Positions 2,585 to 22,568 of a stretch of DNA of 64,000 bases are shown piece by piece. The DNA lies in the IMG/VR virus record IMGVR_UViG_3300021256_000095, positions 10,791 to 74,790 of that record. The stretch is one strand, 5' to 3'. The translations under genes and the position numbers were made by a program. Below the pieces are notes generated by a model. It worked only from the letters and a program-made list of their open reading frames with translations, was not told the origin of the DNA and ran no database searches. Position 1 is the first letter of the stretch, and every line of letters begins with the position of its first letter. The stretch comes from a virus (lineage: Duplodnaviria; Caudoviricetes).

Positions 2585-3193
2585 TTATTTCCATATATAC
2601 ATATGGTTTTTTTCTTCTTCAACCATAGCATCCATATTCCAAAAATCAACAAACTCTGACTGAAGGCATGGCCCTATTAAATTACCATTAAGTATTTCAA
2701 TAGCCTTATTAGCTAATTCTTCTGTAAGTCCGCTATACTCACTTTTATCTTGAAAGTTATATAGTGTTTTTATCCAATGCTTTTTTATTTTATCTTGATC
2801 ATAACCATGAAACCACTCGTCATCAAGAATTACCCAATTTTTAACTTGCGGGTTGTGGTCAAGCCAAGATAGAATTTCATCTGCTCGATCAATCCATCTT
2901 TTTTCAATAGTCTTGCTATATACTTTTAAGCCCTGAGCGCGCAGCTTATTACTTAAATATTTTGCCATTTGATGATTCTGTTTGTACGCTCCTACTTCAA
3001 AATATTTTCTCCAAGTAGAAATTAATACTATTTTTGCATTTGTTTCTTTTACTATCTTAGCAAGTAGTTTAACTTTTGAATTATCAACTCCTAAGTAAGA
3101 AATTTCATCATATATACAACAAGATTTTGAATGTTCCCAATTAAGAACGCCATCTATATCGAGAAAAATAATACTATTAACCTCAATATTCAT
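2585..3193 (-). CDS. HAD-family phosphatase, Swiss-army-knife RNA-repair type (HAD_SAK-like)
   Basis: IIFLDIDGVLN motif I, IVLISTWR, WVILDD motif IV. Confidence 0.75.
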   Translation of the reverse strand: MNIEVNSIIFLDIDGVLNWEHSKSCCIYDEISYLGVDNSKVKLLAKIVKETNAKIVLISTWRKYFEVGAYKQNHQMAKYLSNKLRAQGLKVYSKTIEKRWIDRADEILSWLDHNPQVKNWVILDDEWFHGYDQDKIKKHWIKTLYNFQDKSEYSGLTEELANKAIEILNGNLIGPCLQSEFVDFWNMDAMVEEEKNHMYIWK

Positions 3194-8135: not shown

Positions 8136-8828
8136 TTAAGAAAAACATTCTTTCCTCATTGTTTTGTGTTTTGCAAAACAATATTTTAGAATTTCCTTCT
8201 CAATTAGTACATCTTCAAGTCCAGTGTGACTTTCAATAAAGTCAAGATTATTTGTGATATATTTATAAATAACCTCGGCTTTTACTTGCGGTCTTGGCGT
8301 CTTATGCTTTGTTAAAAATCCATTTTCAAAACAAAAATTAATATAACTTGGTGTTTTAGCAATTACGTCTTGCGCCATTTTCATAGTATCCCAAATCTCA
8401 CAACCGCTTGGTAAAAAGTATCTAAATTTTGACTTTGTAAGCCACCTTTGCGTGTTATTTGTTGCACCATAGTCAAAACGCATATTGTGTGCGCAAACTG
8501 TTTTTGTATTATACCTTTTCAGCGTTTCCGCAAGGTCTTTTTTAATTGAATACCATGTTGCAACTTTACGCTTACCGCTCTTTATATCCGCATAATATTG
8601 CGGTAATTTCTCCGCATAATAACTTGATTTCATTAATTCTTTTTCATCAAAGAATATATCTCTGTTTATATATGACTTTGTTTCATATACATTACCTTTT
8701 TTATCAACAACCGCCCAACCTATGTCATATACAAACATATTATAAGGTGTAACTCCATTAAAATCTTTGTCAAGTGGGCAAGTTTCAGTGTCCATAACTA
8801 CTATATAATGTTTTCTCTTGTCTATCAA
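8136..8828 (-). CDS. DEDDh 3'-5' exonuclease
   Basis: VMDTET (ExoI), AHNMRFD (ExoII), HTGLED (ExoIII); TTG start with RBS. Confidence 0.85.
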   Translation of the reverse strand: MIDKRKHYIVVMDTETCPLDKDFNGVTPYNMFVYDIGWAVVDKKGNVYETKSYINRDIFFDEKELMKSSYYAEKLPQYYADIKSGKRKVATWYSIKKDLAETLKRYNTKTVCAHNMRFDYGATNNTQRWLTKSKFRYFLPSGCEIWDTMKMAQDVIAKTPSYINFCFENGFLTKHKTPRPQVKAEVIYKYITNNLDFIESHTGLEDVLIEKEILKYCFAKHKTMRKECFS

Positions 8829-9541: not shown

Positions 9542-9647
9542 TTGACAAAAAAGCTCGACGGGTGTATAATGGAAATTTGGCGCGAACTCGACTTCCTCCG
9601 GGCGAGTTCGCGCCAAGGAAAATAGCCATAGTTTTCACTATGACTAT
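9542..9647 (+). ncRNA. Rightward promoter, short hairpin RNA and bidirectional terminator (unit B)
   Basis: TTGACA 9542, TATAAT 9565; 14-bp stem TTGGCGCGAACTCG/CGAGTTCGCGCCAA; terminator 9622-9647; no ORF. Confidence 0.6.
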
Positions 9648-9681
9648 AAGGAAAGGAGGTTTCAATTTTCATCTCGTTGAG

Positions 9682-9760
9682 TGGAGCGAACGGGACTCGA
9701 ACCCGTAGCATAGGTAATAATTTGTCACCCACATGGTCTGTTCCAGTTAGTCATCGCCCC
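9682..9760 (-). tRNA. tRNA-like RNA with alanine-type acceptor stem and non-canonical anticodon arm
   Basis: GGGGCGA/TCGCTCC-A acceptor (G3.U70, A73); T arm ACGGG-TTCGAGT-CCCGT; D-like AACTGG; anticodon loop CAAATTA lacks U33; no encoded CCA. Confidence 0.7.
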
Positions 9761-9811
9761 TTATTTATTTATGACCCCCTACCCCATTGGATAGGGGGAG
9801 TAACCTTTGTA

Positions 9812-10138
9812 CTACTCGGCAATCACGAACCTTGTAGGGTTCTTGCCCTTAGCTTCTATCTTTGTAACTGTCTTATCAGCTACAAGTGGACGCATAAGCG
9901 CAGAAGCTTTCTGGCAAGAGATACCAATCTCTGTACCAATTTCAGTAGCCGTTCTTGCGTGACCATCTGCAAGTATTGCAAGAATATCAGCCTTGATACC
10001 CTCATTAGCTACCTGAACCTTAGTTGGCTTTGAGGACTTTCTATCAAGAGAAGCAATCATCTTCTCAGCGACCTCTCTCATTTCATCTGTGCAACCCTCA
10101 AGTTCCATTGTCTTTGTAAGAAATTCTCTCTTTGTCAT
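9812..10138 (-). CDS. Winged helix-turn-helix protein, paralogue 1
   Basis: RTATEIGTEIGISCQKASALMRPLV HTH plus wing; clearly similar to 12995..13309. Confidence 0.75.
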   Translation of the reverse strand: MTKREFLTKTMELEGCTDEMREVAEKMIASLDRKSSKPTKVQVANEGIKADILAILADGHARTATEIGTEIGISCQKASALMRPLVADKTVTKIEAKGKNPTRFVIAE

Positions 10139-10564
10139 AATACATCTACCTCTTTCTTTTTTAATATTTTTTATTTGTTATCTTATGTACTTATTATAAC
10201 TCTTTTTTATTTAGTTGTCAAGTATTTTTTTTATTTTTTTGAGATTGTTTGTAATGGGTTTTCTCTATTAACCGCCTTGCAAGGTTTAAATTTCAGTCAG
10301 AGGAGTTTTCCGCACTCACTATTTAAACGCTCTCTTTATCTTTTGTAAGTTCATTATATCATAATGGAAAAGGATTGTCAAGACCTTTTTTCAAATTTTT
10401 TTCAACCTTGTGTGTACCTTGACTTCCTTACGCACTTGACAGGGTTTTGTTGCAAGTTTTACCAGCCTTTTCCTATTTGATAATTAAATTATAACAAAAT
10501 TTTTTAGTATTTGCAAGTACAAGATTTTTAGGAAATTTTGTGCATTTTGCACAATAAAAAAAGC

Positions 10565-10660
10565 TTGACAAAAATGGCGCGGCGGGTGTATAATATTAAT
10601 TTGGCGCTCACTCGGGGTTCGCGCCCGGTCGCCAAAAAAGAGGACTTTAATAGTCCTCTT
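10565..10660 (+). ncRNA. Rightward promoter, hairpin RNA, terminator (unit C)
   Basis: TTGACA 10565, TATAAT 10589; TTGGCG...CGCCAA; terminator AAGAGGAC/GTCCTCTT. Confidence 0.55.
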
Positions 10661-10817
10661 CTACAAAATCTTTTACTTCTATTTTATCTATAATCCCTTC
10701 AACAGCAAGCCACCTTGCAAATTCTAACACTTCGGGTTCATCTGTAATCCAGTTTATTTCTTTATCAGCATACTGTTTTAAACGTAAATCTTTAATAGTT
10801 ACAATTTTAGTATCCAT
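10647..10817 (-). CDS. 56-aa hypothetical protein (not in ORF track)
   Basis: MDTKIVTIKDLRLK...; GAAAGAGAGG RBS and own promoter. Confidence 0.65.
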   Translation of the reverse strand: MDTKIVTIKDLRLKQYADKEINWITDEPEVLEFARWLAVEGIIDKIEVKDFVEEDY

Positions 10818-10870
10818 TTGTTATACCTCTCTTTCGTTTTCCTTTATTGTATCATAGGGTTGATTATTTG

Positions 10871-11029
10871 TCAACTATTTTTATGAATAAAATTCATTAA
10901 TTTTTCTTTTGATTTAACCATTTCATTTATTATACATTGAGGGGTTTGTTCTTGTATGCATTGTGCAATATAGTCATTTAGCATAGTAATAATTATTAGT
11001 TCATCTATTGTATTAAAATCATCTTCCAT
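10871..11029 (-). CDS. 52-aa hypothetical protein
   Basis: MEDDFNTIDEL...; its TGA stop lies inside the next TTGACA box. Confidence 0.6.
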   Translation of the reverse strand: MEDDFNTIDELIIITMLNDYIAQCIQEQTPQCIINEMVKSKEKLMNFIHKNS

Positions 11030-11080
11030 TTTATTATATTTTTCTCCTTTTCTTTATTATACTACATTTGCGGTTGTTTG

Positions 11081-11338
11081 TCAACCGCAATATAGTAAAA
11101 TTATAAAATAAATATTCAGTGCTACACTTGATAAGTGCATTACAAGCCCATTTATGTGGCGGTCAACCGCAAGGTCTTTTATAACACCGATAAACGCAAT
11201 CGCAAGTCCGAACCATGCAATAGACAATCCATAAATCATAATGAGAATTACATTGATTACAGTTATTAAGCACCGCAAGTCATTGTATTCAAATCTGTAT
11301 CTTCCTTCGATTTTAAAAAACTCTTTTACTTTTGTCAT
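11081..11338 (-). CDS. Small multi-TM membrane protein
   Basis: Three hydrophobic segments; RBS present. Confidence 0.7.
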   Translation of the reverse strand: MTKVKEFFKIEGRYRFEYNDLRCLITVINVILIMIYGLSIAWFGLAIAFIGVIKDLAVDRHINGLVMHLSSVALNIYFIILLYCG

Positions 11339-11355
11339 AGGCTTTTCCTCTCTTT

Positions 11356-11523
11356 CTATTTGATACTTATTAAACGTAAATAGTTGTCTTTTGCTCTTTG
11401 TTTGCTTAACTGTCTTGTGTTTTTAGGTAAATGCTTTCTTTTTCTTTCGTTATTATTAAAACTGTTATAATACTTTATTAAAAACATTTTCCTTAATTTA
11501 TGTATTTTCATTTTTGAACTCAT
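11356..11523 (-). CDS. Basic 55-aa protein
   Basis: MSSKMKIHKLRK...; RBS and own promoter. Confidence 0.55.
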   Translation of the reverse strand: MSSKMKIHKLRKMFLIKYYNSFNNNERKRKHLPKNTRQLSKQRAKDNYLRLISIK

Positions 11524-11582
11524 TTTTATTTCCTCTCTTTCGTTTTTCTTTATTATATCACAGGGTTGACTAATTGTCAACC

Positions 11583-11783
11583 CTAAACATTTTTTACTAC
11601 AAGGACAGTTTCCTGAAGTCCGTCATTACTTGCAATATACATTTCAAATTGAGTATCCCATACTCTACCGAGTTTGATGAATGTAACCTGTGGGCTATTA
11701 TCCATCATATCAAAGAAGAGTTTTGCGCTCATGAATGTGTTGTTATTTGCTTTAAGCCAATTCTTAATTTCCCATGTGTACAT
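11583..11783 (-). CDS. Hypothetical protein
   Basis: MYTWEIKNWL...; GAAAGAGAGG RBS. Confidence 0.65.
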   Translation of the reverse strand: MYTWEIKNWLKANNNTFMSAKLFFDMMDNSPQVTFIKLGRVWDTQFEMYIASNDGLQETVLVVKNV

Positions 11784-11905
11784 ACGCTTTACCTCTCTTT
11801 CTTCTTTTCTTGAATTAAGTATATCAAAAAAAGAAGTAAAAATCAAGCCGGAATTTTGCACAAATTTTTAGGATAAAATTTGTGCAAAATTTTTTAAAAT
11901 TTTGC

Positions 11906-12001
11906 TTGACAAAAATCTTGAGCCGTGGTATAATTGAATTTTGGCACAACAGCGCGCGCTGTTGTGCCATGAAAAAAGTCGGTTAAGGAAACTTAACCGA
12001 C
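11906..12001 (+). ncRNA. Rightward promoter, perfect 28-bp palindrome, terminator (unit D)
   Basis: TTGACA 11906, TATAAT 11929; TGGCACAACAGCGCGCGCTGTTGTGCCA 11942-11969; terminator 11978-12001. Confidence 0.6.
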
Positions 12002-12021
12002 CAACCGCATCAACTATTATT

Positions 12022-12198
12022 TTATTCTTCCCAATGTTTTATAAGTTCTAAAGAGCCGTCCTTTTGTATTTCATAATGTTCATATCCAAATTTTTTATAC
12101 TTGACTGGAATTTTATTACACACAAGAATAGGTTCTCTATCTACTTCACATTCCCACGGGTCACTAAGTGGTGTACATTTTACAATTAAATATTTCAT
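12022..12198 (-). CDS. 58-aa hypothetical protein
   Basis: MKYLIVKCTPLSDPWECEVDREP...; RBS and own promoter. Confidence 0.65.
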   Translation of the reverse strand: MKYLIVKCTPLSDPWECEVDREPILVCNKIPVKYKKFGYEHYEIQKDGSLELIKHWEE

Positions 12199-12235
12199 TT
12201 TATTTACCTCTCTTCCTTTTGATAAATCTATTATA

Positions 12236-12421
12236 CTATAATTTCACTTTTGTGTCAAGTGCTTTTCTATAAAAATTATCTAATTCTACAAAAGTCATAG
12301 CGCCATTCAAATAACCTTTTACCATAATTCTAAAATACATAGATATTTTATGATCTTTACCAAATCTATTTTCTATCTCTTGCGTCATCCATTTAGTTAA
12401 ACGTACTCTTGAATTTTCCAT
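12236..12421 (-). CDS. Hypothetical protein
   Basis: GAAAGGGG RBS, 61 aa. Confidence 0.55.
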   Translation of the reverse strand: MENSRVRLTKWMTQEIENRFGKDHKISMYFRIMVKGYLNGAMTFVELDNFYRKALDTKVKL

Positions 12422-12581
12422 TTTTACTACCCCTTTCTTTTGATAAACAATCTCTCATAGTTTGTTTCATTTCTTTATATTTTTTTAAGTAGTAATGTTT
12501 ATTCATACGTTCTTTACTTAATTTATAATATACTTTTGCACTCTTATAATAAACGTAAAACATTAGATATTTATTTGTCAT
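12393..12581 (-). CDS. Basic hypothetical protein
   Basis: RBS and own promoter ~12608-12634. Confidence 0.5.
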   Translation of the reverse strand: MTNKYLMFYVYYKSAKVYYKLSKERMNKHYYLKKYKEMKQTMRDCLSKERGSKNGKFKSTFN

Positions 12582-12726
12582 TTTTATTACCCCTTTCCTT
12601 TTTCTTTATTATAACAAATTTTTATTTTCTTGTCAACTATTTTTGCAATAACTACAGTCAATATTTTATTAACTTTTAAAGCAAAGTTAGAGGAAACGAA
12701 CAAATTTCCGCCGGCTTAAAAAATTG

Positions 12727-12838
12727 TTGACAAAAACTTGTAAGTGTAGTATAATTAAGAAAGCGGCTCTGTTGCGGAAGGGACGCCCGCAACAGAGCCG
12801 ACAAAAAGTTGAGCCAAAGGCGGTAAACCTTTGGCTCA
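12727..12838 (+). ncRNA. Rightward promoter, hairpin RNA, terminator (unit E)
   Basis: TTGACA 12727, TATAAT 12750; 14-bp stem CGGCTCTGTTGCGG/CCGCAACAGAGCCG; terminator 12810-12838. Confidence 0.6.
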
Positions 12839-12879
12839 TTTAGGAAAGGAGGATTTTATATCAAACCTTATCTGTATTA

Positions 12880-12952
12880 GTAGGGTAAAGCGGAATCGAA
12901 CCGCTTATCAGCTCGCAACTTCTTGGAGATTTTACCTTTAAACTATACCCTA
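12880..12952 (-). tRNA. tRNA-like RNA without a canonical anticodon loop
   Basis: Perfect acceptor TAGGGTA/TACCCTA; D arm GTTT-AAAGGT-AAAA; T arm AGCGG-TTCGATT-CCGCT; anticodon arm folds only with a bulge and 4-nt loop. Confidence 0.7.
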
Positions 12953-12994
12953 ACCCCCACCCCAACCTTGCGGAGTGGGGGAGTAACTCACAGA

Positions 12995-13309
12995 TTACTC
13001 TGCGATGTGGTAGGTTGCAGGGTTCTTGCCCTTACCCTCTACCTTTACGACACTCTCAATCTGCTTGAGGAGTGCGGCTACCTTTGCGGTTGAGTAACCA
13101 ACCTCGTCAGCGATTTCCCTTGCGGTCATCGGCTCTGCGCCCATAACCTCAACAATTTTCGCCTTGATACCCTCGTTCTCAATCTGCGCCTTTGTCGGCT
13201 TTGAGGACTTTCTATCAAGACTTGCAATAGCCTTTGCCATTACCTCTCTCTCTTCTGAATCCTCTGCAAACATTTCCATAGCCTTTGTGAAAACTTCTCT
13301 CTTTGTCAT
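12995..13309 (-). CDS. Winged helix-turn-helix protein, paralogue 2
   Basis: MTAREIADEVGYSTAKVAALLKQI HTH; shares MTKRE, IASLDRKSSKPTK, NEGIKA, KGKNP and IAE with paralogue 1. Confidence 0.75.
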   Translation of the reverse strand: MTKREVFTKAMEMFAEDSEEREVMAKAIASLDRKSSKPTKAQIENEGIKAKIVEVMGAEPMTAREIADEVGYSTAKVAALLKQIESVVKVEGKGKNPATYHIAE

Positions 13310-13630
13310 AGTACATCTACCTCTTTCTTTTTATTTTTTATTTTGTAAGTTAATTATAACAAATCTTTTTTATTTTGTCAATAGTTTTTTTATTTTTTTT
13401 CGGTTGCGCAACCTTTCGTTTCGGTTTTGTTTTCGTATAACCTGTGGAAGAATATCCTACCCTGAAGTGCGCCAGTCTGCCATTTTTTTAGTTTCGTATT
13501 GAACTCAGAGTGAACACTGGACTGCTCTAAAGTCAACCAATCTCACGAGTTTGGTAGCCGATGTATGACACAAAACCATACATTGAAGAGTTTTTATGAC
13601 TTTGCTTTGTCATTTTCTATATTTATTATA

Positions 13631-13789
13631 TCATAGATTTTCTAATCTGTCAAGCATTTTTTTAAAATCTTTTTTGATTTTATTTCTTGAGGGGTGTTTA
13701 GCATCTTTATGCACCCTCGTACCTGTATTCATATTGTACCATACTCTTTGACTTTTGTCAAGTAGTTTTTTCTTATTTTTTTCAACCAT
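13631..13789 (-). CDS. 52-aa basic protein overlapping two promoters
   Basis: MVEKNKKKLLDKSQRVWYNMNTGTRVHKDAK...; GAAAGAGG RBS. Confidence 0.55.
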   Translation of the reverse strand: MVEKNKKKLLDKSQRVWYNMNTGTRVHKDAKHPSRNKIKKDFKKMLDRLENL

Positions 13790-14003
13790 TTTTTTATCCT
13801 CTTTCCATTTGGTATTTATATTATAACAAATTTTTATTTATTTGTCAACTATTTTTTTATTTATTCTGTGCTTTTTCGGTTTAGCACAGAGAACCGTGGG
13901 AGGTTCTTGCCTCACTTTCTGATATAATTATAGCAAAATTTTATTTGTATGTCAAGCACAAATTTTGGGAAAAATTTTGGTTATTTTGCACAAAAATTTT
14001 TAC

Positions 14004-14107
14004 TTGACAAAAACTTGGCGGTATGGTATAATGGTAAATTTGGCGCTCGCACGGGGAAGGGCACCCGCGCTCGCGCCATCAAAAAATGAGGGCGGATATC
14101 CGCCCTC
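14004..14107 (+). ncRNA. Rightward promoter, hairpin RNA, terminator (unit F)
   Basis: TTGACA 14004, TATAAT 14027; TGGCGC...GCGCCA; terminator GAGGGCGG/CCGCCCTC. Confidence 0.55.
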
Positions 14108-14307
14108 TACTCTCCAAAAATCTTATCCTGACAAGTAGGACACATACCTGAGACAATGCACTCTCTGTCTGTTGCGGACAGATAAGGGAAAGCATTCTGC
14201 ACAAGTGCGCCACTCTCATATTTTTCAAGGTCAGTCAGATTAACTTCAACTGCCCAACTTTCATTACAAAATACACAATTTCCGATAAGATTAACTCTCA
14301 CTCTCAT
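14107..14307 (-). CDS. Small Zn-finger protein
   Basis: CVFC...CPTC; GTG start with RBS. Confidence 0.65.
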   Translation of the reverse strand: MRVRVNLIGNCVFCNESWAVEVNLTDLEKYESGALVQNAFPYLSATDRECIVSGMCPTCQDKIFGE

Positions 14308-14377
14308 TCACCTTTTCCTTTCTTTCTTTTGATACTCTTATTATATCAGAGGGGTTGAGGTTTGTCAACCCCTTTTT

Positions 14378-14650
14378 TCAAATTTTTTCAAGTATCTCGT
14401 CTGCGGTCAACCAACCTACTACTTCACAAGAGGTTTCCCATTTTGATACTATAGTTCCTGCAATTTCAAGGAGACCACTTTTACAACCATAGCTTCCACC
14501 GTGGATTATAGCATCCCACCTATTATTTTTTTCATCACGGACTAATACCTGACGACCGTCATAAAGGTCACGTATAGTAATATTAAATCCACCCTTATTT
14601 ATAAGACCAACCACAAGCTTATTAAGTTCTTCATAATTATACATAATCAT
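14378..14650 (-). CDS. Hypothetical protein
   Basis: GAAAGAGAGG RBS, own promoter. Confidence 0.65.
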   Translation of the reverse strand: MIMYNYEELNKLVVGLINKGGFNITIRDLYDGRQVLVRDEKNNRWDAIIHGGSYGCKSGLLEIAGTIVSKWETSCEVVGWLTADEILEKI

Positions 14651-14773
14651 TACCTCTCTTTCATTTGTTGTATTAAGTATATCACATAAGAATAATATTG
14701 TCAAGCACTTTTTTGCGGGCGCCCGGTTAAGGTGGCGGAGGGGTCGAGTAAAGACCCCTTAACCGCCCAACCG

Positions 14774-14935
14774 CTACTTAACCTTAGCGAGTTCCCTTAT
14801 TTTTGCCACCCTCTTTGGATTATACTTGTAATCATCTTTTACAATAGGGATAAGCTCTATCTTGTAAATTTTACCCTCAATATCTTTAAGAACATCAGTT
14901 CTCATATTTCCTGCTACATACGTTACTTTTCTCAT
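14774..14935 (-). CDS. 53-aa hypothetical protein
   Basis: MRKVTYVAGNMRTDV...; RBS, promoter and downstream hairpin 14725-14764. Confidence 0.6.
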   Translation of the reverse strand: MRKVTYVAGNMRTDVLKDIEGKIYKIELIPIVKDDYKYNPKRVAKIRELAKVK

Positions 14936-15003
14936 ACTCGTTTCCTCTCTTTCTTTATCTTTTGTAAGTTTATTATAACATATTTTATTCGGGGTGTCAA
15001 GTA

Positions 15004-15252
15004 TTAAATATCATATTTTTTCCCAAATTCCATAGCAAATTTTGCAATTTCGTAACTATGAAAAGGAAGATTTATTCTACTTGCACATTCAAGAAGCCAC
15101 GGAAAAACTTGGTCTATTTCATCACACCAGTTAGATTTTTTAAAGTCTGAAAAGAAGAATCTGCAATCAGGATGTTTGGTACTGCCGCCCCATACCTCAA
15201 AAATAGTTTCTCTCGTTTTAAGATTTGAATATAAAACACAATGTCCTATCAT
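15004..15252 (-). CDS. Hypothetical protein
   Basis: 82 aa, RBS and own promoter. Confidence 0.6.
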   Translation of the reverse strand: MIGHCVLYSNLKTRETIFEVWGGSTKHPDCRFFFSDFKKSNWCDEIDQVFPWLLECASRINLPFHSYEIAKFAMEFGKKYDI

Positions 15253-15346
15253 ATTGTTTACCTCTCTTTCACTTTCTATTGTTATTATATCAGATTATAA
15301 TAGGGGTGTCAAGTATTTTTTTTGAAAAAATGCCCGGTCAAAAAAT

Positions 15347-15378
15347 GCGGACTTGCTTTTTAAACTATGCAAGTCCGC
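15347..15378 (-). terminator. Intrinsic terminator after tRNA-Lys
   Basis: GCGGACTTGC/GCAAGTCCGC stem followed by a U-run on the minus strand. Confidence 0.7.
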
Positions 15379-15418
15379 CAAAGGAAAGAAAGGCATATCA
15401 AATTATATCTACTACGAA

Positions 15419-15491
<73 letters not shown>

Positions 15492-15498
15492 CTATTTA

Positions 15499-15633
15499 TC
15501 ACCATTTTGTGCGGTTTGGTGATTTTCTCTTGCGTTCCTCTCTGAGTTCGTCATACCAATCAATGAACCCAGCAATTCCGCAACCTATAACTACTATACA
15601 ATTAACCATTCCAAGAATTATTATACTATTCAT
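15499..15633 (-). CDS. 44-aa single-TM peptide, upstream of tRNA-Lys on the same strand
   Basis: MNSIIILGMVNCIVVIGCGIAGFIDWYDELREERKRK...; RBS and promoter. Confidence 0.6.
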   Translation of the reverse strand: MNSIIILGMVNCIVVIGCGIAGFIDWYDELREERKRKSPNRTKW

Positions 15634-15689
15634 ACCTTTTACCTCTCTTTCATTTTCTATATATATTATAGCAAAAAATTTTTATTTTG

Positions 15690-15875
15690 TCAACAATTAT
15701 TTTTTGCACCACAATTTTCACAATAATTTGGATATATACCTTGTGTTGACATCATTGACCTGCGGTAATTACAAAATGGACATTCAATTTGCCATGTATA
15801 TGATTGACAATCAATATCAATCCATTTCCCCTCTAATCTTGAGTTTTCAGTTTTATTAATTGTTATTCTTTCCAT
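15690..15875 (-). CDS. Zn-ribbon protein
   Basis: CPFC...CENCG motifs. Confidence 0.7.
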   Translation of the reverse strand: MERITINKTENSRLEGKWIDIDCQSYTWQIECPFCNYRRSMMSTQGIYPNYCENCGAKNNC

Positions 15876-16028
15876 TCTTTTGTCCTCTCTTTCACTTTCT
15901 ATATATATTATAACATATAGGATTTAATTTGTCAACTATTTTTTTCAAATTTTTCAAACAAACAATCAAATAACCGATTGATTTCACACACGCGGATGTA
16001 TCCGTCCCGCCCTCTATCAACTAACTTG

Positions 16029-16490
16029 CTAAGCCATAAGCTTAGCAAGTGTCTTTTCATTTGTAAAGGTTGCACCCTCAAACTTTATTTGATATGCAAT
16101 TCCATTATCCTCTACGTCACCGCCCTTGGTGAATGGTACATTATCCTTTTCCCAAACCTGACCGAACATCTGTTCAGTTACAAGTTTTTCAAAAATCTCA
16201 CCTTTATTATATTTTGAATTTGCAACCATGCTATCAAACAGCTCTTTTGAACATATAGCGGTTGCTTCATATGTCATCAGCATAGTTTTCTGTGACTTGT
16301 TAGGTTTAAATCTGAGACTGAATCCTTGACCTCTTGAAGCTCTATCGAGTGAGCATACATAAGGCATAACTGAAGAATCAGTTATAACAGCCATAATGAC
16401 ACCATTAAAAGCAAATCCGAAGATATACTCATGGGTATAGCTGATTTCATTGTAGCGGTTGATTAAGTTGTTGAAAATTGTTGTATTCAT
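16029..16490 (-). CDS. Hypothetical protein
   Basis: 153 aa, AAGAGAGG RBS. Confidence 0.7.
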   Translation of the reverse strand: MNTTIFNNLINRYNEISYTHEYIFGFAFNGVIMAVITDSSVMPYVCSLDRASRGQGFSLRFKPNKSQKTMLMTYEATAICSKELFDSMVANSKYNKGEIFEKLVTEQMFGQVWEKDNVPFTKGGDVEDNGIAYQIKFEGATFTNEKTLAKLMA

Positions 16491-16689
16491 ATTGGTTTAC
16501 CTCTCTTCCCTTACCTCTTGTATATATGATACTACTTTTGAAGCTGGATTGCAATAGTTTTTTAAAAAAATTTTGTACAAAGATTTAAGACTGTTTTTGT
16601 GCATTTTGCTACAAATTGCACACAATTTATTTTGTGCAAAACAGAGAAATTTTGGGATCATTTTTGTGCATTTTTTTCAAAAAAAATGC

Positions 16690-16993
16690 TTGACAAAACA
16701 TCTGGCGGCGTGGTATAATTAAATTTGGCGTTTTTACAAACGTGAACGTATGTTCATATGTACATATGAATATATACACATATGTGTATATACACATATG
16801 AATGACCGCTCATATGACAACGGTTCCGGGTGTGTCCTCGAACATCTGTTTGGCGCGCAACCGGTTGCGCAAAGTCGAACACCTGTTCAAACAAGTATAG
16901 CGGCTGGCTGGCGATTCGCACAGCCGCCAGCCAGCCGCCCAACGCAAAAAAGCCAGTTGTTCGGCTTTCGCTTACTGACTCTGGCTTTTTTGC
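16690..16993 (+). ncRNA. Rightward promoter and a ~270-nt non-coding, palindrome-rich transcript (unit J)
   Basis: TTGACA 16690, TATAAT 16714; nested palindromes; hairpin 16900-16938; terminator 16944-16993. Confidence 0.55.
16744..16888. promoter_or_regulatory. Three Firmicutes LexA (DinR/Cheo) box-like sites
   Basis: GAACGTATGTTC 16744, GAACATCTGTTT 16840, GAACACCTGTTC 16877 vs consensus CGAACRNRYGTTYC. Confidence 0.6.
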
Positions 16994-17490
16994 TGTCGGT
17001 GGGAGGGAACTTGCCGCCCGACCTGCTCGCACTCTCTGGCGCCCCTTGGTTCCCGAGCTTTGGCGCCCCTTTCGGTACTCTATTCAGCTATTTAATTCGG
17101 TGGTGCTCTCATACTCCTTACCTCACTTTCTGAATTAAGTATAACATACTCGGTTCAGTTTGTCAACTATTTTTTTAAAATTTTTTTGAGTGACCGCCAA
17201 GTCCGAACCTCTTTCAGCTTCATCAGCTTACTCATCACTCTGAGGGCTTTGTCCCTACTTATTTCACTGCTGTTAGCAAGTGCCCCATGTGGGTTACACG
17301 GCTGAAGGCTCTGTCGTTAATTAAAGGTCTTACACCTCGACTTGTGAGGATTTCTCGCCTACCTTACTGCTTGGAGCGGGTTGTACGCCGTGGGTTTAGG
17401 TTTTTCCTTACCTTATGTATTAAGTATAGCACTTAATTTTTAATTTGTCAACTACTTTTTTAATTTTTTTTGATTAGGTAAATGCTTCCT

Positions 17491-17775
17491 TTAGATTTCA
17501 AAGGAAGCATAGCCGAGCTGAACATCAAAGCCTTCGAAGTGGTAGATCACATAGAAGTCACCTTCGTAAGAAAGACATTCTGCTTCGAGCATTTCACGGA
17601 AAGCACCAACCGCTTCTTCATCGTCATACTCACGCTCTACTTCAGACCAATCATCATCGAAACCTTCAAAGTCCTGTAAATCTACGTGAAGCACTTCATC
17701 AGAGAGCCACATTTCAGCATCAGCACCGAGACCTTCAACAACCGCTATCATCATTTCTAAAGACATCATTTTCAT
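17491..17775 (-). CDS. Highly acidic protein
   Basis: D/E-rich ~94 aa, RBS and own promoter. Confidence 0.7.
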   Translation of the reverse strand: MKMMSLEMMIAVVEGLGADAEMWLSDEVLHVDLQDFEGFDDDWSEVEREYDDEEAVGAFREMLEAECLSYEGDFYVIYHFEGFDVQLGYASFEI

Positions 17776-17868
17776 TTCCTCTCTTTCGTTTGTTTCTATA
17801 ACTATTATAGCGTATCCGGCTTGACTTGTCAAGCACTTTTTTAAATTTTTTTGATTTTTTCAGAGGGT

Positions 17869-17976
17869 CTACTCTGAGTAGACCCAGCCCCCGATTTCAG
17901 AGGCGATGGCTTCCGCCTCAACCTCGTCGGTCGTTCTGTAGAAGAACTGATTGTTCATGTCGATTACGTAGTACAT
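17869..17976 (-). CDS. 35-aa acidic peptide, paralogue of 22440..22568
   Basis: MYYVIDMNNQFFYRTTDEVEAEAIASEIGGWVYSE; AAGGAGG RBS. Confidence 0.65.
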   Translation of the reverse strand: MYYVIDMNNQFFYRTTDEVEAEAIASEIGGWVYSE

Positions 17977-18081
17977 ACTGTGTACCTCCTTCCTTTATCT
18001 TGACTTAATTATAGCACTTTAAACCGGTGTTGTCAACCCTTTTGTGAAAAATTTTTCAAAAAAATTTTTTTAATTTTCCTC

Positions 18082-18188
18082 TTGACAAAACTCATGGCGG
18101 TGTGGTATAATATTTTCGCCCGCCAGGCGGTCGCTGAGGTCAGAGGTCGGTTGCTGAAAAACTGCGGTCTCTGATTTCAGAGACCGCA
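18082..18188 (+). ncRNA. Rightward promoter, short RNA, terminator (unit K)
   Basis: TTGACA 18082, TATAAT 18106; terminator TGCGGTCTCTG/CAGAGACCGCA. Confidence 0.5.
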
Positions 18189-18193
18189 TACTT

Positions 18194-18445
18194 TTATCTG
18201 TAATAGCTACTTAATTCAATTATCTTATGACATTTATCACATCTATAAATGTAGCTCTTTGTACTGGCAGTGCCATTACGAACTAACTGACTATATTCAT
18301 AATGACCGCCACACTCTGTACAGACACCGTTATTATAAATTTTTTCATCGTGCTTCTTTTCAAGATAGCAAACACCTACTAAAATAATTATTAATACCGC
18401 CATTCCGATAATAACCTTTACCATATTAAAAAACATTTCCTTCAT
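18194..18445 (-). CDS. Membrane-anchored Zn-ribbon protein
   Basis: N-terminal TM helix, then CTEC...CDKC. Confidence 0.7.
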   Translation of the reverse strand: MKEMFFNMVKVIIGMAVLIIILVGVCYLEKKHDEKIYNNGVCTECGGHYEYSQLVRNGTASTKSYIYRCDKCHKIIELSSYYR

Positions 18446-18603
18446 AAGAATATACCTCTCTTTCCTTTACTATGATTTAAGTATAGCACACTGGTGGGCG
18501 CTTGTCAAGCAAAATATTGCACAAAATTACAGGAAAATTTTTGTGCAGTTTGCACATAAAAAAGTGCTTGACAAACAGCCTGAGATCTGCTCTAACAAGT
18601 ACA

Positions 18604-18642
18604 GCGGTCTGCTGGCGATTCGCACAGCCGCCAGCAGACCGC
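18604..18642. repeat. Second copy of the hairpin at 16900-16938
   Basis: Identical loop ATTCGCACAGC and inner stem; three compensatory base-pair changes. Confidence 0.85.
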
Positions 18643-18657
18643 CCAAAGACGAGGAAG

Positions 18658-18825
18658 TTATTCTTCCTCATCCATCACTGGCTTAGCTATCATCACCGCA
18701 AAAGCTAACCGCAGAATGTCTATATTGGTTATTGTCTTTGCCATCCTTGAGAACTCTACCGTATATTCATCTTCAAAACCTCTTCTTCTTATCATCTCGT
18801 CAAGCATTTCTTCTCTATTCAGCAT
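18658..18825 (-). CDS. 55-aa hypothetical protein
   Basis: MLNREEMLDEMIRRRGFED...; RBS and promoter. Confidence 0.65.
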   Translation of the reverse strand: MLNREEMLDEMIRRRGFEDEYTVEFSRMAKTITNIDILRLAFAVMIAKPVMDEEE

Positions 18826-18883
18826 TTTTGTTTTCCTCTCTTTCCTTTTTGTAAGTTTATTATATCATAAAGAAGTTTACTTG

Positions 18884-19024
18884 TCAACCCTTTATTTTTA
18901 TTTTTCTAAATCTTTTATTTGCCTGTTTCTTGGTTGCAACTTTTTCTACCCACCAAAGACCGCCAAAAGTACACTGTCCTACAAATTTTGTTCTTGCCAT
19001 TTTTTTATAATCCGCTCTTCCCAT
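18884..19024 (-). CDS. Basic peptide
   Basis: MGRADYKKMARTKF...; RBS and promoter. Confidence 0.55.
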   Translation of the reverse strand: MGRADYKKMARTKFVGQCTFGGLWWVEKVATKKQANKRFRKIKIKG

Positions 19025-19081
19025 ATCTTTACCTCTCTTGTTTTTCTTTATTATATCATAAGGGGTTGAGGTTGTCAACCC

Positions 19082-19267
19082 CTATTTTCTTTTAATTTCA
19101 AATTTTTCAGTAGGAAAATCAAAACTTAATGTTATACAATTTGCATTTGTTTCAGAAATTATAGGCTCTGAATTTACCCAGATATTATAGTTAAGCTCTT
19201 TATTTATAATTATATCTGCATCCATTGGATAATCTAAAAGTTTTGTAATTAAATCTTTTACTGTCAT
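19082..19267 (-). CDS. Hypothetical protein (MTVKDLITKL..P.DA type)
   Basis: RBS and own promoter. Confidence 0.65.
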   Translation of the reverse strand: MTVKDLITKLLDYPMDADIIINKELNYNIWVNSEPIISETNANCITLSFDFPTEKFEIKRK

Positions 19268-19357
19268 TTTTTTATCCTCTCTTTAATCTTTTGTAAGTTT
19301 ATTGTATCATATATTTTTTTATTTGTCAACAACTATTTTTATTTTTCATATATGACC

Positions 19358-19666
19358 TTAGCAATATGCTAAGGTCATATTTGCCCACTTCAGAATTGAA
19401 ATCTGATTGCAAGCCCGCCCGATTGTAAGGGCTTCACGCTTGGTATTTACTCGCTTACTCTTATCTATATACCAAACACCATTTGAGAACCATATGCCAC
19501 AGTTGCCGTCATATGCTTTGATTGCCTTCATAGCAACAACCATATCTTCGGTCTCTATGCCTTCGGTGGCAACCTGCCACCCTGACTTGTAGGTTATAAC
19601 CTTACCATTCTTAAGGGTAAGCCCGCCGTTGTCCTTTATCTTTTTGAGTGTTCTTATGTTTATCAT
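19358..19666 (-). CDS. Hypothetical protein
   Basis: 102 aa, RBS and own promoter. Confidence 0.7.
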   Translation of the reverse strand: MINIRTLKKIKDNGGLTLKNGKVITYKSGWQVATEGIETEDMVVAMKAIKAYDGNCGIWFSNGVWYIDKSKRVNTKREALTIGRACNQISILKWANMTLAYC

Positions 19667-19881
19667 TTTGTTTTCCTCTCTTTCCTTTACTGTAATTAAA
19701 GTATATCATACTCAACCGGATTTGTCAACAAAAAAATTGCACAAAAATAGGATTTTTTATTGTATAAAATTTTTGAAAAAAGTGCTTGACAAAATGCGTA
19801 TAGCTGTGATATAATATTTTTGGCGTGGCGGCAGCCGCTGCCGAGTATTAAAAAAAGAAAAGGCGTTTCCGCCTTTTCTTT

Positions 19882-20010
19882 TTATGGTGTAGGAATGAAC
19901 TTTACAACCTTTCCGTGCTGACGCTCTTCCCATTTTTTCTCTGAAGCGCTCAGACCACGATACCAACACTGATAACCATCTTCAAAAATATACCAACCTG
20001 TAGACTTCAT
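19882..20010 (-). CDS. 42-aa peptide
   Basis: MKSTGWYIFEDGYQCWYRGLSASEKKWEERQHGKVVKFIPTP; RBS. Confidence 0.6.
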   Translation of the reverse strand: MKSTGWYIFEDGYQCWYRGLSASEKKWEERQHGKVVKFIPTP

Positions 20011-20122
20011 AATTTTTTACCCTTTACCTTTCGGTTTCCTTTCCTTTTGTTATATTTATAATATCATACTTTTTTTAGTTTGTCAACAACTATTTTTTAT
20101 TTTTTTATGGGAGTGAGAAGCT

Positions 20123-20284
20123 CTAATCAAAGAGTTTCTCACTTGTCTGATAAAGCTTATCAGTGAAAATGTGGTCATATACATAACGTGGATACCAAAC
20201 ACTGATAACGTCCTTCTTGCGTCCTCTTGCAAGTTCCTTTCCGTCCTTATCTCTTAAAACCCAAACTCTCCAATTCTTATTCAT
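20123..20284 (-). CDS. 53-aa peptide
   Basis: MNKNWRVWVLRDKDGKELARG...; RBS and promoter. Confidence 0.6.
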   Translation of the reverse strand: MNKNWRVWVLRDKDGKELARGRKKDVISVWYPRYVYDHIFTDKLYQTSEKLFD

Positions 20285-20661
20285 ACCTTTGTACCTTTCA
20301 ACCTTTCCGGTCGTCCTTTCCTTTATTGTGATTTTATTATATCATGGGCTTGACCATCTGTCAAGCCCTTTTTATTAAATTTTTAAGATTTTTTGTAAGC
20401 TCTCTGTCTTTCAAATGAGCAACCGGCGCTTGGCTCGTCCGCCCACCCTATTCGATTGTGTTGCTTATCTCTTATCTTGATTAAATTATATCAAACAAGA
20501 CCGGTTTTGTCAATACTTTTTTATAAAAAATTTTGCACAAATTAAGGATAAAAATTTATATAAAATTTGTGCAAATTTCCACTTGACAAAACCCGTTGCC
20601 ATGTGATATAATTTTTGGCGCTGAAACGTATGTAACGAAAAAAGAGCCTTTCGGCTCTTTT

Positions 20662-20871
20662 TTACACTGCTGTGAGTAAACCTGAATAAACTCTTAACCA
20701 CATATCCTGCATATCTGTATCATGTCCTATTGCTTCCCAAACTTTTGTGTCAAGTTCTTCAATTTCAAATTCCATTTCATCTTCGTCTACCTCTGAAAGA
20801 GACTCTGCAAAAAATGCTAATGCTTCGATATAATCCTTTTTTAAGTTCTTCTTGATTTCTTTCTTTGTCAT
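20662..20871 (-). CDS. Acidic hypothetical protein
   Basis: MTKKEIKKNLKKDYIEAL...; RBS. Confidence 0.6.
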   Translation of the reverse strand: MTKKEIKKNLKKDYIEALAFFAESLSEVDEDEMEFEIEELDTKVWEAIGHDTDMQDMWLRVYSGLLTAV

Positions 20872-21112
20872 ATTTTTGTACCTTTTCCGTTTCCGGTTTT
20901 CCTTTCCTTTACTGTAATTAAAGTATATCATCTTTAATACATTTTGTCAATAGTTTTTTTAAAATTTTTTTATTTATTTTTCTTGTCATTTTGCACAAAT
21001 TTTGTGATCAAAATTTGTGCAATTTTTTATTATTTTTTACTTGACAAATTACACTGCCATGTGATATAATTTTTTGGCGGTCAGGCGGTCGGTAACAAAA
21101 GAAAAGGCTGAT

Positions 21113-21256
21113 TTACTCAGCCTTTACTTTGTAGGTAAAAAGTGTTATTTCTTTGTAGTTACCTTTTATTTTGTTGTACTCAGTGACTGCCTCGGCTCTA
21201 TCTGTAAAAGTTGCGATTTCTTCACCCTCTGCCCAAATTTCGTAAATATTCATCAT
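21113..21256 (-). CDS. 47-aa peptide
   Basis: MMNIYEIWAEGEEIATF...; AAAGGAGG RBS. Confidence 0.6.
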   Translation of the reverse strand: MMNIYEIWAEGEEIATFTDRAEAVTEYNKIKGNYKEITLFTYKVKAE

Positions 21257-21324
21257 GTTTTTGTCCTCCTTTTGTTTTTCTGATTTAATTATATCATTGT
21301 TTTTCTTACTTGTCAACTACTTTT

Positions 21325-21432
21325 TTATTTTTTTATTATTATTTTGAAGCCCGCATTTTCAAGTCTTTTTATATCAATCTCGCTTGCTTTTGTTTTATCA
21401 ATTACATAACCATCTATCATTATTATTGCCAT
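21325..21432 (-). CDS. 35-aa peptide
   Basis: MAIIMIDGYVIDKTKASEIDIKRLENAGFKIIIKK; RBS and promoter. Confidence 0.55.
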   Translation of the reverse strand: MAIIMIDGYVIDKTKASEIDIKRLENAGFKIIIKK

Positions 21433-21518
21433 TTTTTTTGTCCTCTTTTCCTTTTTCCTTTATTATACTATTTTCATTTTGTTTTGTCAACTATTTTTTA
21501 ACTTTTTATCTTGAAGCT

Positions 21519-21677
21519 TTAAGCTTCAAGATAAAAGTTTTCTTCTTTATTCATTATTATTACAAAGTCAAGATTGAAAAGCTTCTTTTCTTTTGCGTAA
21601 AAATTAAATGTGTTCATTGCTTCTTTGTAGTTTCTTGTTTCAATGACTTCCTTATCTGCTAATAAAACTTCGTACAT
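21519..21677 (-). CDS. 52-aa peptide
   Basis: MYEVLLADKEVIETRNYKEA...; RBS and promoter. Confidence 0.55.
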   Translation of the reverse strand: MYEVLLADKEVIETRNYKEAMNTFNFYAKEKKLFNLDFVIIMNKEENFYLEA

Positions 21678-21941
21678 AATTTTCACCTTTTCAGCTTTCG
21701 CTGTCCTTTCCTTTATCTTGATTTAAGTATATCACCAACAACCGGTTTTGTCAATACTTTTTTTAAAAATTTTTTATTTATTTTTGCACAAATTAAGTGA
21801 TAAAAATTTGTACAAATTTTTTGCAAATTCTACTTGACAAAATGTGCTTTCATGTGTTATAATATTTTTGGCTTTTTTACGTTGTTTTCGATTAAATTAA
21901 AAAACTTGAAGCCTTTTGCTTCAAGTTTTTTATTTATTTTA

Positions 21942-22145
21942 TTATCTTTTATTTATCCATTCTGTGATAATCACTTTATTTCTTTTGTTTCTATCATCAG
22001 CTTCTTTTGTTTCCCATGTCCATGTATCTATCATTTTAAGCATGAAATCAACTTTTTCAATTTCTTCAAGTGCTTTATTAAGTTTTTCAATTGTATCATT
22101 GTTTGTATACTCTTTTCCTCTAATCGTGATTGTACTTTCGTTCAT
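21942..22145 (-). CDS. Hypothetical protein
   Basis: 67 aa, RBS, own promoter. Confidence 0.6.
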   Translation of the reverse strand: MNESTITIRGKEYTNNDTIEKLNKALEEIEKVDFMLKMIDTWTWETKEADDRNKRNKVIITEWINKR

Positions 22146-22439
22146 AGTTTTTACCTTTCCTTTCCTTTTGTTTGTTTTCCTTTTTCTTGAGTTAAGTATA
22201 ACAAATTAAACCAGTTTTGTCAATACTTTTTTAAAATATTTTTTATTGTTATTTTTCACAAAAATAGGAAAAAAATTTGTTTATTTTTTTGCAAAAAAAC
22301 ACTTGACAAACTATGCTGTGCTGTGGTATAATTAAATTTGGAGTTTTTTCGAGTGGTGCGGCTGGTCGCTCTTCGTGGCGTTTCAAGGCGCGGTTCGCGC
22401 ACATCAAAAAAAGAAGAGCTTTTCAGCTCTTCTTTTTGT

Positions 22440-22568
22440 CTACCAAACGAAGTCCTCGTCTGTCATGTAGAACCCGCCGATTTCCTCAGCTATGAGTCTT
22501 GCGCCTTCCTCGTCATTCTTTACTGTTGTGAATATTCTGTTGTTTGTGTCGATGATGTAGTATGTCAT
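22440..22568 (-). CDS. 42-aa acidic peptide, paralogue of 17869..17976
   Basis: MTYYIIDTNNRIFTTVKNDEEGARLIAEEIGGFYMTDEDFVW. Confidence 0.65.
   Translation of the reverse strand: MTYYIIDTNNRIFTTVKNDEEGARLIAEEIGGFYMTDEDFVW

Follow-up and report, generated by a model that had tools for sequence, protein, structure and literature searches.

Earlier reports indicate that tRNA-like elements set messenger RNA (mRNA) ends through ribonuclease (RNase) P and RNase Z, and that plant mitochondrial t-elements and mascRNA are CCA-tailed and uncharged (PMC1920247; bioRxiv 10.1101/2024.09.09.612099). In the herpesvirus MHV68, the TMERs join a viral transfer RNA (tRNA)-like element to a downstream regulatory RNA that is freed by tRNase Z (PMC4838037), while in E. 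coli the 3' trailer of a tRNA, 3'ETS-leuZ, serves as a regulatory RNA (PMC8166272, citing Lalaouna 2015). Phage tRNAs have also been reported to counter tRNA-cleaving defences or to offset host tRNA nucleases (PMC11555353, PMC10264068). In this study, a window of 64,000 nucleotides (nt), comprising bases 10791-74790 of one 74.8-kb virus contig with 32% G+C (IMG/VR record IMGVR_UViG_3300021256_000095), was investigated for a duplicated cassette in which the gene of a winged helix-turn-helix (wHTH) protein is followed by a hairpin, a tRNA-like RNA and a trailer with an anti-Shine-Dalgarno (anti-SD) motif. We observed that the anatomy of the cassette is conserved in related loci, that its tRNA slot is swapped between tRNA-like RNAs and genuine tRNAs, and that the tRNA-like RNAs covary. 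As to its working, we see about an even chance that the cassette is an early unit from which host RNase P and RNase Z cut three RNAs, namely an mRNA, a tRNA mimic and an anti-SD trailer.

Comparatively, the cassette resembles the t-elements and MALAT1-mascRNA in that a tRNA-like fold directly flanks the end of a longer transcript, whose 3' end RNase P would make and local structure would protect, and in that the tRNA-like RNA, once excised, would be non-decoding and has no encoded CCA. It differs from them in being a phage unit, in a slot that alternates between mimics and genuine tRNAs, in a conserved trailer of functional appearance, and in one class of mimics that keeps the full alanine identity set, whereas t-elements and mascRNA are uncharged. 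As in the TMERs, a viral tRNA look-alike stands directly upstream of a putative small RNA, which a host tRNA 3' endonuclease would free; the TMERs, however, are eukaryotic RNA polymerase III (Pol III) units without an mRNA, and carry a microRNA precursor downstream instead of an anti-SD seed and a terminator. The position of the conserved seed, predicted to be single-stranded, between the tRNA 3' end and the terminator recalls 3'ETS-leuZ, and the trailer would likewise act in trans as a base-pairing RNA. 3'ETS-leuZ sponges the small RNAs RyhB and RybB through Hfq, whereas the phage seed is the anti-SD core of 16S rRNA and its unit is viral, multi-copy and conserved across a phage clade. Like the phage tRNAs that counter defences, the slot of relatives and a sister unit express tRNA-Lys(UUU/CUU) early from consensus promoters, but the two copies in the window have no anticodon loop, and are thus unable to make good the loss of a cleaved tRNA or to act as bait for an anticodon nuclease. 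Our literature searches found no described phage unit with a swappable slot, Ala-identity mimics and an anti-SD trailer. Processing signals of tRNA-like shape and regulatory RNAs derived from trailers are already known from organelles, herpesviruses and E. coli; the phage unit unites the two with a swappable tRNA slot.

Both cassettes lie on the minus strand in one order, namely promoter, wHTH open reading frame (ORF), hairpin, tRNA-like RNA, spacer, CCUCCUUUCC and terminator (Table 1). The sequence-only reading had proposed these two copies, and both were found exactly where it placed them; the two wHTH proteins, which it had called paralogues, are 52% identical (E 1e-33). Within the 74.8-kb contig, CCTCCTTTC occurs in these two cassettes only. 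About 25 related loci keep the promoter together with the A-rich leader and the GAAAGAGGT ribosome site, and very strong, early transcription is the best reading of this promoter region. The C5..G5 hairpin of copy A has a predicted stability of -19 kcal/mol, shows compensatory changes across loci, and contains one G.U pair, which lies on the sense strand. The counter-oriented promoter at 9542-9570 is not required for the cassette, since half of the related trailers have none.

Table 1. Coordinates of the two cassettes, their flanking promoters and the related third unit in the window
Feature	Position	Strand	Remarks
Promoter A, TTGACA-17-TATAAT, 12/12	10221-10193	-	A-tract upstream region
wHTH paralogue A, 108 amino acids (aa)	10138-9812	-	ORF and protein comparison
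Hairpin A, 10-bp C5..G5, 4-nt loop, no U tract	9798-9775	-	Starts 14 nt past the stop codon
tRNA-like RNA A, 79 nt	9760-9682	-	Rfam tRNA (RF00005) 27.1 bits, tmRNA (RF00023) 16.3 bits
Trailer A, 22-nt A-rich spacer, then CCUCCUUUCC	9681-9650	-	Motif predicted unpaired
Motif CCTCCTTTCC, copy A	9659-9650	-	
Intrinsic terminator A	9647-9622	-	GC-containing stem and U run
Promoter B, TTGACA-17-TATAAT, 12/12, TG-extended -10, behind A tracts	13381-13353	-	
wHTH paralogue B, 104 aa	13309-12995	-	AlphaFold2 model, >331 homologues
Hairpin B, 10-bp C5..G5, no U tract, about 14 nt past the B stop codon	12981-12954	-	
tRNA-like RNA B, 71 nt	12951-12881	-	Rfam tRNA (RF00005) 27.0 bits
Trailer B, 28-nt A-rich spacer, then CCUCCUUUCC	12880-12843	-	
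Motif CCTCCTTTCC, copy B	12852-12843	-	
Intrinsic terminator B	12838-12810	-	GC-containing stem and U run
Counter-oriented promoter (9542-9570) and GC-rich hairpin (9579-9614)	9542-9614	+	Antisense into cassette A
Counter-oriented promoter (12727-12755) and GC-rich hairpin (12763-12800)	12727-12800	+	Downstream of cassette B
Related third unit	15633-15340	-	Membrane ORF, tRNA-Lys(UUU), decayed trailer and terminator
Third unit, 44-aa membrane ORF	15633-15499	-	
Third unit, tRNA-Lys(UUU)	15491-15419	-	
Third unit, terminator	15379-15347	-	

During the analysis of related loci, the region past the wHTH stop codon was read in about 110 loci, 30 from IMG/VR and 80 from metagenomes. As these loci were anchored on the protein, the conservation that they display is independent of the RNA motifs. 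Hairpin and anti-SD trailer were present in all 18 loci with a wHTH identity of at least 60%, in 11 of 18 at 50-59%, in 4 of 14 at 45-49% and in a single one of 40 below 45%. The recurrence in 18/18 and 11/18 loci is not due to chance and upholds the earlier proposal of selection on the layout. In a sister clade at 49-61% identity (L007, L058, L060, L062, L064 and others), the gene ends in a plain terminator, with neither the C5..G5 hairpin nor a tRNA-like RNA. The question whether wHTH homologues lack tRNA-like folds downstream therefore has a divided answer, as the folds are present in the close clade and lacking in the wider family, and the module is a clade-specific elaboration within a wider wHTH family.

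The content of the slot between hairpin and trailer, which holds one to three elements, was found to be interchangeable. Anticodon-less RNAs of the Ala type, 71-132 nt long, make up 14 distinct sequences; besides them there are an 'ACCCUA' class (copy B of the window, L004, L036 and L056) and a 'GCCACCC' class (L006, L051 and L068), as well as genuine tRNA-Lys(CUU) in L003, L038 and L047 (58-71 bits), tRNA-Pro(UGG) in L050 and tRNA-Asn in L034; L002 keeps a T-arm remnant only. The closest relative of the copy A protein (L184, 65% identical) has tRNA-Lys(UUU) in the slot, followed by a nearly identical trailer. The idea of a dedicated protein/tRNA-mimic module, which the sequence-only reading had suggested, is not supported by this exchange of mimics for genuine tRNA-Lys, tRNA-Pro and tRNA-Asn. 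The RNA is also a transcription unit of its own in five loci (L034, L049, L051, L056 and L063), where the hairpin overlaps in its 3' arm with a fresh consensus promoter. By these comparisons, the trailer travels with tRNA genes and the hairpin with the wHTH gene, and the wHTH and the mimic are probably neighbours and not obligate partners.

With respect to the tRNA-like RNAs themselves, the Rfam RF00005 matches of A and B stay under the gathering score of 29 and align the acceptor stem and T arm, with the D and anticodon regions skipped, and ARAGORN at default settings called neither a tRNA. Both retain a 7-bp acceptor stem and a 5-bp T stem with a UUCGA-type loop. In RNA A, whose acceptor GGGGCGA/UCGCUCC carries G3:U70 together with A73, the T arm is intact and a D stem is missing; its 8-bp central stem is closed by the 7-nt loop CAAAUUA, in which position 33 is A, so that U33 is lacking. 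RNA B displays A1-U72, G3-C70 and A73 in the acceptor, a 4-bp D stem and an intact T arm, with a bulged central hairpin capped by GAAG in place of a 5-bp anticodon stem with a 7-nt U33 loop. The description given earlier, of good acceptor and T arms without a canonical anticodon loop, fits both RNAs. The companion statement that the two differ strongly and keep the fold holds for the acceptor and T-arm half and fails for the rest, where A and B belong to different classes. Neither RNA encodes CCA; in all lineages but one, the bases after A73 are CUC, CUA, AUC or UUU and CCA is unencoded. The sequence of RNA B is identical in a 98%-related locus (L032).

G3:U70 together with A73 is the established identity set of alanyl-tRNA synthetase (AlaRS), which ignores the anticodon. 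We found this set in RNA A and in 13 further distinct relatives, and it is absent from RNA B owing to its G3-C70 pair. RNA A shares with the tRNA-like domain of transfer-messenger RNA (tmRNA) and with tRNA-Ala minihelices the GGGG start, G3:U70, A73 and T arm, together with the absence of a D stem and an anticodon. Unlike tmRNA, however, it aligns to RF00023 at its terminal positions alone, at 16.3 bits against a threshold of 47, and no mRNA-like domain, pseudoknot, tag frame or encoded CCA was found in it, its 79 nt being too short for a tag frame; copy B has no G3:U70 at all. Several relatives scored 13-22 bits with the tmRNA model against the same threshold, and these weak matches, like that of RNA A, are due to the shared Ala-type acceptor.

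Covariation was examined in 13 sequences forming two sub-alignments, and compensatory double changes were observed at acceptor pairs 5-8, in the T stem and in three of the five D-stem pairs. Such changes in the acceptor, D and T stems bear out the expectation that these RNAs are conserved and covarying and not simple decaying tRNAs; in our alignments the mimics appear to be real RNAs and not debris. A single U-to-C transition would turn G3.U70 into a regular pair. G3.U70 was nonetheless never 'repaired' in the 13 aligned sequences or among the 14 diverged Ala-type homologues, despite the turnover of neighbouring pairs, and RNA A is probably alanine-chargeable.

The trailer was compared over 43 distinct sequences, in which the spacer between discriminator and motif measures 19-35 nt, mostly 22-28 nt. 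The motif CCUCCUUUCC is the core of the 16S rRNA 3' end, its mean unpaired probability is predicted at 0.79, and it is invariant in all 29 close protein-anchored loci that have a trailer. Conservation extends outside the searched motif, with AAU at 86-95% and the following U at 100%, while spacer and terminator stems diverge. The same type of trailer stands behind stand-alone tRNA-Lys(UUU) and tRNA-Thr genes. A search of IMG/VR with a 15-mer of the trailer motif gave 115 matches, of which 96 were reverse-strand ribosome sites or coding sequence; after removal of the false positives in unrelated contigs, about 12 matches in six related contigs were left, each behind a tRNA or a mimic. When bacterial genomes were scanned with a 15-mer made of the Ala-type 3' end and the trailer start, at least 120 chance matches were obtained, and none among those listed had the motif downstream. 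A convergent promoter within 230 nt is missing from 14 of 28 related trailers, so that selection probably acts on the sense strand. For a small ORF, whether within the trailer or past AGGAGG on the other strand, no conserved start codon or frame was found. The anti-SD motif could in theory pair with the hairpin's G-rich arm (9 of 10 pairs) or with the cassette's own ribosome site (4+4 with a bulge), but both pairings were rejected, being unspecific and without covariation; the G-rich arm, moreover, is absent from the tRNA-Lys units.

These tRNA-Lys units are exemplified in the window by the third unit of Table 1, whose trailer is homologous, its pyrimidine tract being decayed to CCUUUCUUUCC (15393-15383). 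In L120, L161, L166 and L198, a promoter, a membrane ORF of 44-67 aa, tRNA-Lys(UUU) and a trailer with a perfect motif follow one another. The membrane ORF is unrelated to the wHTH; it encodes a single-pass protein with a basic C-terminal half, and tRNA-Lys(UUU) with an anti-SD trailer always stands directly after it. Membrane ORF, tRNA-Lys and trailer form a second conserved ORF-plus-tRNA unit of the phage clade.

RNase P and RNase Z require just the acceptor/T minihelix, and in Firmicutes RNase Z cuts CCA-less precursors endonucleolytically, directly after the discriminator. The geometry of the cassettes, with an intact acceptor-T minihelix, an unencoded CCA and a hairpin just upstream, fits release by these two enzymes, and we infer the cleavages, the addition of CCA, the charging and every function in trans proposed below. 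Host RNase P would cut at the 5' end of the tRNA-like RNA and host RNase Z past the discriminator A73. The first product would be the wHTH mRNA, with its new 3' end shielded by the C5..G5 hairpin, which would stand in for the removed terminator; such a shield is in keeping with the sister clade, in which the tRNA slot is missing, the terminator is normal and no such hairpin occurs. A CCA-tailed, non-decoding tRNA mimic would be the second product, and the third would be a trailer RNA of about 65-75 nt with single-stranded CCUCCUUUCC right before the terminator hairpin. Base-pairing small RNAs are usually built in this way, with an exposed seed beside the hairpin of a terminator. Among 30 larger ORFs of this contig that were searched with Pfam, none matched RNase P/Z, a CCA-adding enzyme, AlaRS or SmpB, the HAD RNA-repair domain described below being the only find of this kind; the completeness of the contig is estimated at 57% (CheckV).

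As for the fate of these products, AlaRS would charge the copy A mimic, given that G3:U70 and A73 are kept, and the mimic, as a look-alike of the acceptor end, would tie up or divert factors whose targets are tRNA acceptor ends or tmRNA-like domains. An RNA without an anticodon is a poor decoy for anticodon nucleases, and it may be a decoy for factors that read the acceptor end. The trailer would pair with Shine-Dalgarno regions and thereby modulate translation initiation. The slot in relatives would provide tRNA-Lys early in infection. tRNA-Lys is a classic target of anti-phage nucleases. A part in the conflict over tRNAs is the most economical frame for the unit, since the slot of relatives gives tRNA-Lys early and phage tRNAs are known to act against tRNA-cleaving defences. 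If the products exist, the cassette would be a compact phage device in which one promoter serves for an mRNA, for a tRNA or its mimic and for a small RNA, and the 14 natural Ala-type RNAs would form a series for probing non-decoding charged tRNAs in infected cells. The alternation of tRNA-Lys and mimics in the slot ties the unit to the question of how phages meet tRNA-targeting immunity.

Several points weigh against this proposal of processing by host enzymes. RNase Z leaves a 5'-monophosphate, and in Firmicutes such ends normally invite decay by 5'-exonucleases; the trailer may for this reason fail to accumulate after the cut. A look-alike of the 16S rRNA 3' end cannot separate phage from host ribosome sites, which makes a benefit to the phage doubtful. 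The membrane-ORF/tRNA-Lys units have no protective hairpin, so that the protective role of the hairpin is not general. The Ala-type class was selected by its GGGG...CUCCA ends, and the constancy of pairs 1-4 is therefore partly circular; weight falls only on the covariation of pairs 5-8 and on the absence of G3-C70 variants in the Ala-type group. Given the heterogeneity of the mimics and the lack of Ala identity in copy B, one shared function is also unlikely. A bolder version, which we put forward tentatively and consider more doubtful than the processing itself, is that this rumen phage clade makes Ala-chargeable anticodon-less mimics and a multi-copy mimic of the 16S 3' end as two effector RNAs by way of host tRNA-processing enzymes. 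The mimics would then intercept defence toxins that modify or cleave acceptor ends, AlaRS/EF-Tu, or SmpB and trans-translation, and the trailer would compete for Shine-Dalgarno sequences, reprogramming translation initiation during takeover. If true, a viral anti-Shine-Dalgarno RNA would represent a new mode of disturbing translation initiation.

The tRNA-like RNAs might, on the other hand, be mere handles by which RNase P and RNase Z set the 3' end of the mRNA and the 5' end of the trailer, in the manner of plant mitochondrial t-elements or mascRNA, the excised RNA being functionless. That conservation between the classes is confined to the acceptor and T half, that any tRNA or mimic fits the slot, and that t-elements are CCA-tailed yet uncharged (bioRxiv 10.1101/2024.09.09.612099) all speak for such punctuation, but it leaves unexplained why G3.U70 and A73 are kept in 14 distinct sequences while neighbouring pairs covary freely, why D stems covary, and why the inserts are elaborate and tetraloop-capped; some mimics, furthermore, are under their own promoters and need no mRNA to punctuate, and we regard this explanation as unlikely. 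It is quite unlikely, in our view, that the protein binds or needs the adjacent RNA as a ribonucleoprotein or decoy regulator, in other words that wHTH and mimic form a dedicated module. Such a module would predict the tight linkage seen in the two paralogues and in 29 of the 36 homologues of at least 50% identity, and some winged helices do bind RNA, with SelB among the fold matches (Z 8.4-8.6). Against it stand the genuine tRNAs in the slot of many relatives, the closest relative of copy A included, the separate promoter of the RNA in some relatives, the bare remnant in L002, and the occurrence of trailer and tRNA-Lys behind the unrelated membrane ORF. Homologues below about 50% identity and the sister clade do without the RNA part, and the fold matches are generic for wHTH proteins, with no family at threshold.

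Two further explanations concern the nature of the RNA and the strand of the motif. AGGAAAGGAGG could be a ribosome-binding or 'STAB-SD'-like stabiliser site on antisense RNAs that silence the cassette, given that both window cassettes have a 12/12 plus-strand promoter behind them reading into them and that GAAAGGAGG is a perfect ribosome-binding site. This is nevertheless very unlikely, considering that half of the related trailers (14/28) show no convergent promoter within 230 nt, that no conserved start codon or ORF lies downstream on the plus strand, and that the motif, at a fixed distance from the 3' end of the tRNA, borders directly on a terminator whose direction is that of the minus strand. 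Least probable of all is that the RNAs are neutral remnants of phage tRNA genes and the trailer a part of the terminator region, even though L002 has a T-arm remnant alone, the mimics fall into heterogeneous classes and the tRNA scores of both window copies lie just below the threshold. Decay would neither keep a wobble pair nor create new stable stems; acceptor and T stems are kept perfect by compensatory changes, the sequence is identical in a 98%-related phage, and motif and flanks are invariant over 43 diverged trailers.

The wHTH protein belongs to an unnamed family of more than 331 homologues, nearly all of 104-108 aa. The AlphaFold2 model of paralogue B (predicted local distance difference test, pLDDT, 90) consists of three N-terminal helices and a winged helix; residues 63-70 and 74-81 are helical, and 87-90 and 99-102 form strands. 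Foldseek and VIA-align gave generic winged helices at Z 8-10, among them Z-alpha, IclR/MarR/ArsR regulators, the Pol III C39 winged helix and SelB, with the best VIA-align match at Z 10.3 and a root-mean-square deviation of 1.4 over 58 residues. Z-alpha domains form the top fold rows (Z 10.3, 9.3 and 9.2), tied with IclR and MarR regulators. The Z-alpha signature consists of Asn/Tyr in the recognition helix and Trp in the wing; the residues invariant in the family are K76, A79, L80, K93, K95 and Y100, and by this list, which involves no residue-level superposition, the Asn/Tyr pair is not obvious. None of the named wHTH families PF0610-like_N, DprA_WH, MarR, TrmB and ArsR reached its Pfam curated cut-off, the best matches being PF21476 (23.4 against 33) and DprA_WH (20.8 against 22.9), and in PHROGs no family passed the threshold, with PHROG 142 at E 2e-4 only. 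A match to the 'CAP repeat' of 8vd6 in the PDB sequence search was discarded, as it contains no single significant stretch. The protein is most likely an ordinary dimeric DNA-binding early regulator that is co-expressed with the RNAs and not their partner. A remote third paralogue (E 1.4e-5) was noticed at L001:9429-9803 (minus strand; genome 9471-9785), beyond the window, and inspection by eye showed no tRNA-like RNA behind it. In other phages, a DEDD-type exonuclease gene like that at 8136-8828 of the window comes directly after many of the distant homologues.

The early region in which the cassettes lie occupies the minus strand up to about 23500 of the window, and comprises dozens of small ORFs, each under its own consensus sigma-70-type promoter. 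Around ten TGCACAAA-N14-TTTGTGCA inverted repeats were found in it, seven of them about 20 nt upstream of the -35 of a counter-oriented promoter, and these repeats are plausible operators for a dimeric wHTH. About 12 counter-oriented consensus promoters, many with a TGTG-extended -10, were observed on the plus strand at 9542-22730; at 10 of 13 such promoters, TTTGGC or TTTGGA stands within a few bases downstream, mostly leading into a GC-rich hairpin. Promoters and repeats together are a possible operator/antisense system punctuating the early region. Just upstream of the cassettes, ORF-less stretches of 150-220 nt lie under consensus promoters on the minus strand (13400-13640 and 10240-10420), and the stretch preceding copy B shows about 80% conservation in related contigs, as the reverse complement downstream of L007, L062 and L069; Rfam gave no match.

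The plus strand of the window carries large genes, mostly without possible annotation. A blastn search of the region against 50,697 phage records returned two trivial matches only, and no cultured phage among them is alike at the DNA level. At gathering thresholds, Rfam detected in the window the tRNA-Lys and a group I intron and nothing else, and the permissive matches besides tRNA and tmRNA were set aside as noise. A minus-strand ORF at 2585-3193 encodes the HAD domain of 'Swiss Army Knife' RNA-repair proteins (PF18143, E 7e-25), which suggests that the phage copes with RNA damage. NrdD, the anaerobic ribonucleoside-triphosphate reductase, is encoded on the minus strand at 61876-63906 (E 1.5e-146), in keeping with a strictly anaerobic host, and together with the rumen origin of related contigs it points to an anaerobic, gut-dwelling host.

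ARAGORN identified 12 tRNAs in the contig, namely the tRNA-Lys(UUU) at 15419-15491 and 11 clustered just beyond the window. In this cluster, directly upstream of tRNA-Asn, a third anticodon-less tRNA-like RNA was observed at L001:4519-4592 (minus strand, genome coordinates; z = -2.5). Its acceptor stem has 8 bp, its D stem is long and its T arm intact, and an ACUC-GCAA-GAGU hairpin stands instead of an anticodon arm. At L001:3250-4100 (minus strand), another tRNA is interrupted by about 800 nt of inserted sequence coding for a PD-(D/E)XK endonuclease (Pfam PDDEXK_5, E 2e-23), and Rfam found neither a group I nor a group II intron there. An ORF for a GIY-YIG endonuclease lies just upstream of tRNA-Met at L001:845-1639. 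The long spacers of the cluster (L001:2290-2610 and others), which measure 100-400 nt, are relatively GC-rich, ORF-less and without an Rfam match, and are candidate structured RNAs. Within the window, the group I intron (Rfam 94 bits) is located on the plus strand at 26914-27134 between two unannotated plus-strand ORFs, and it probably splits a late or replication gene.

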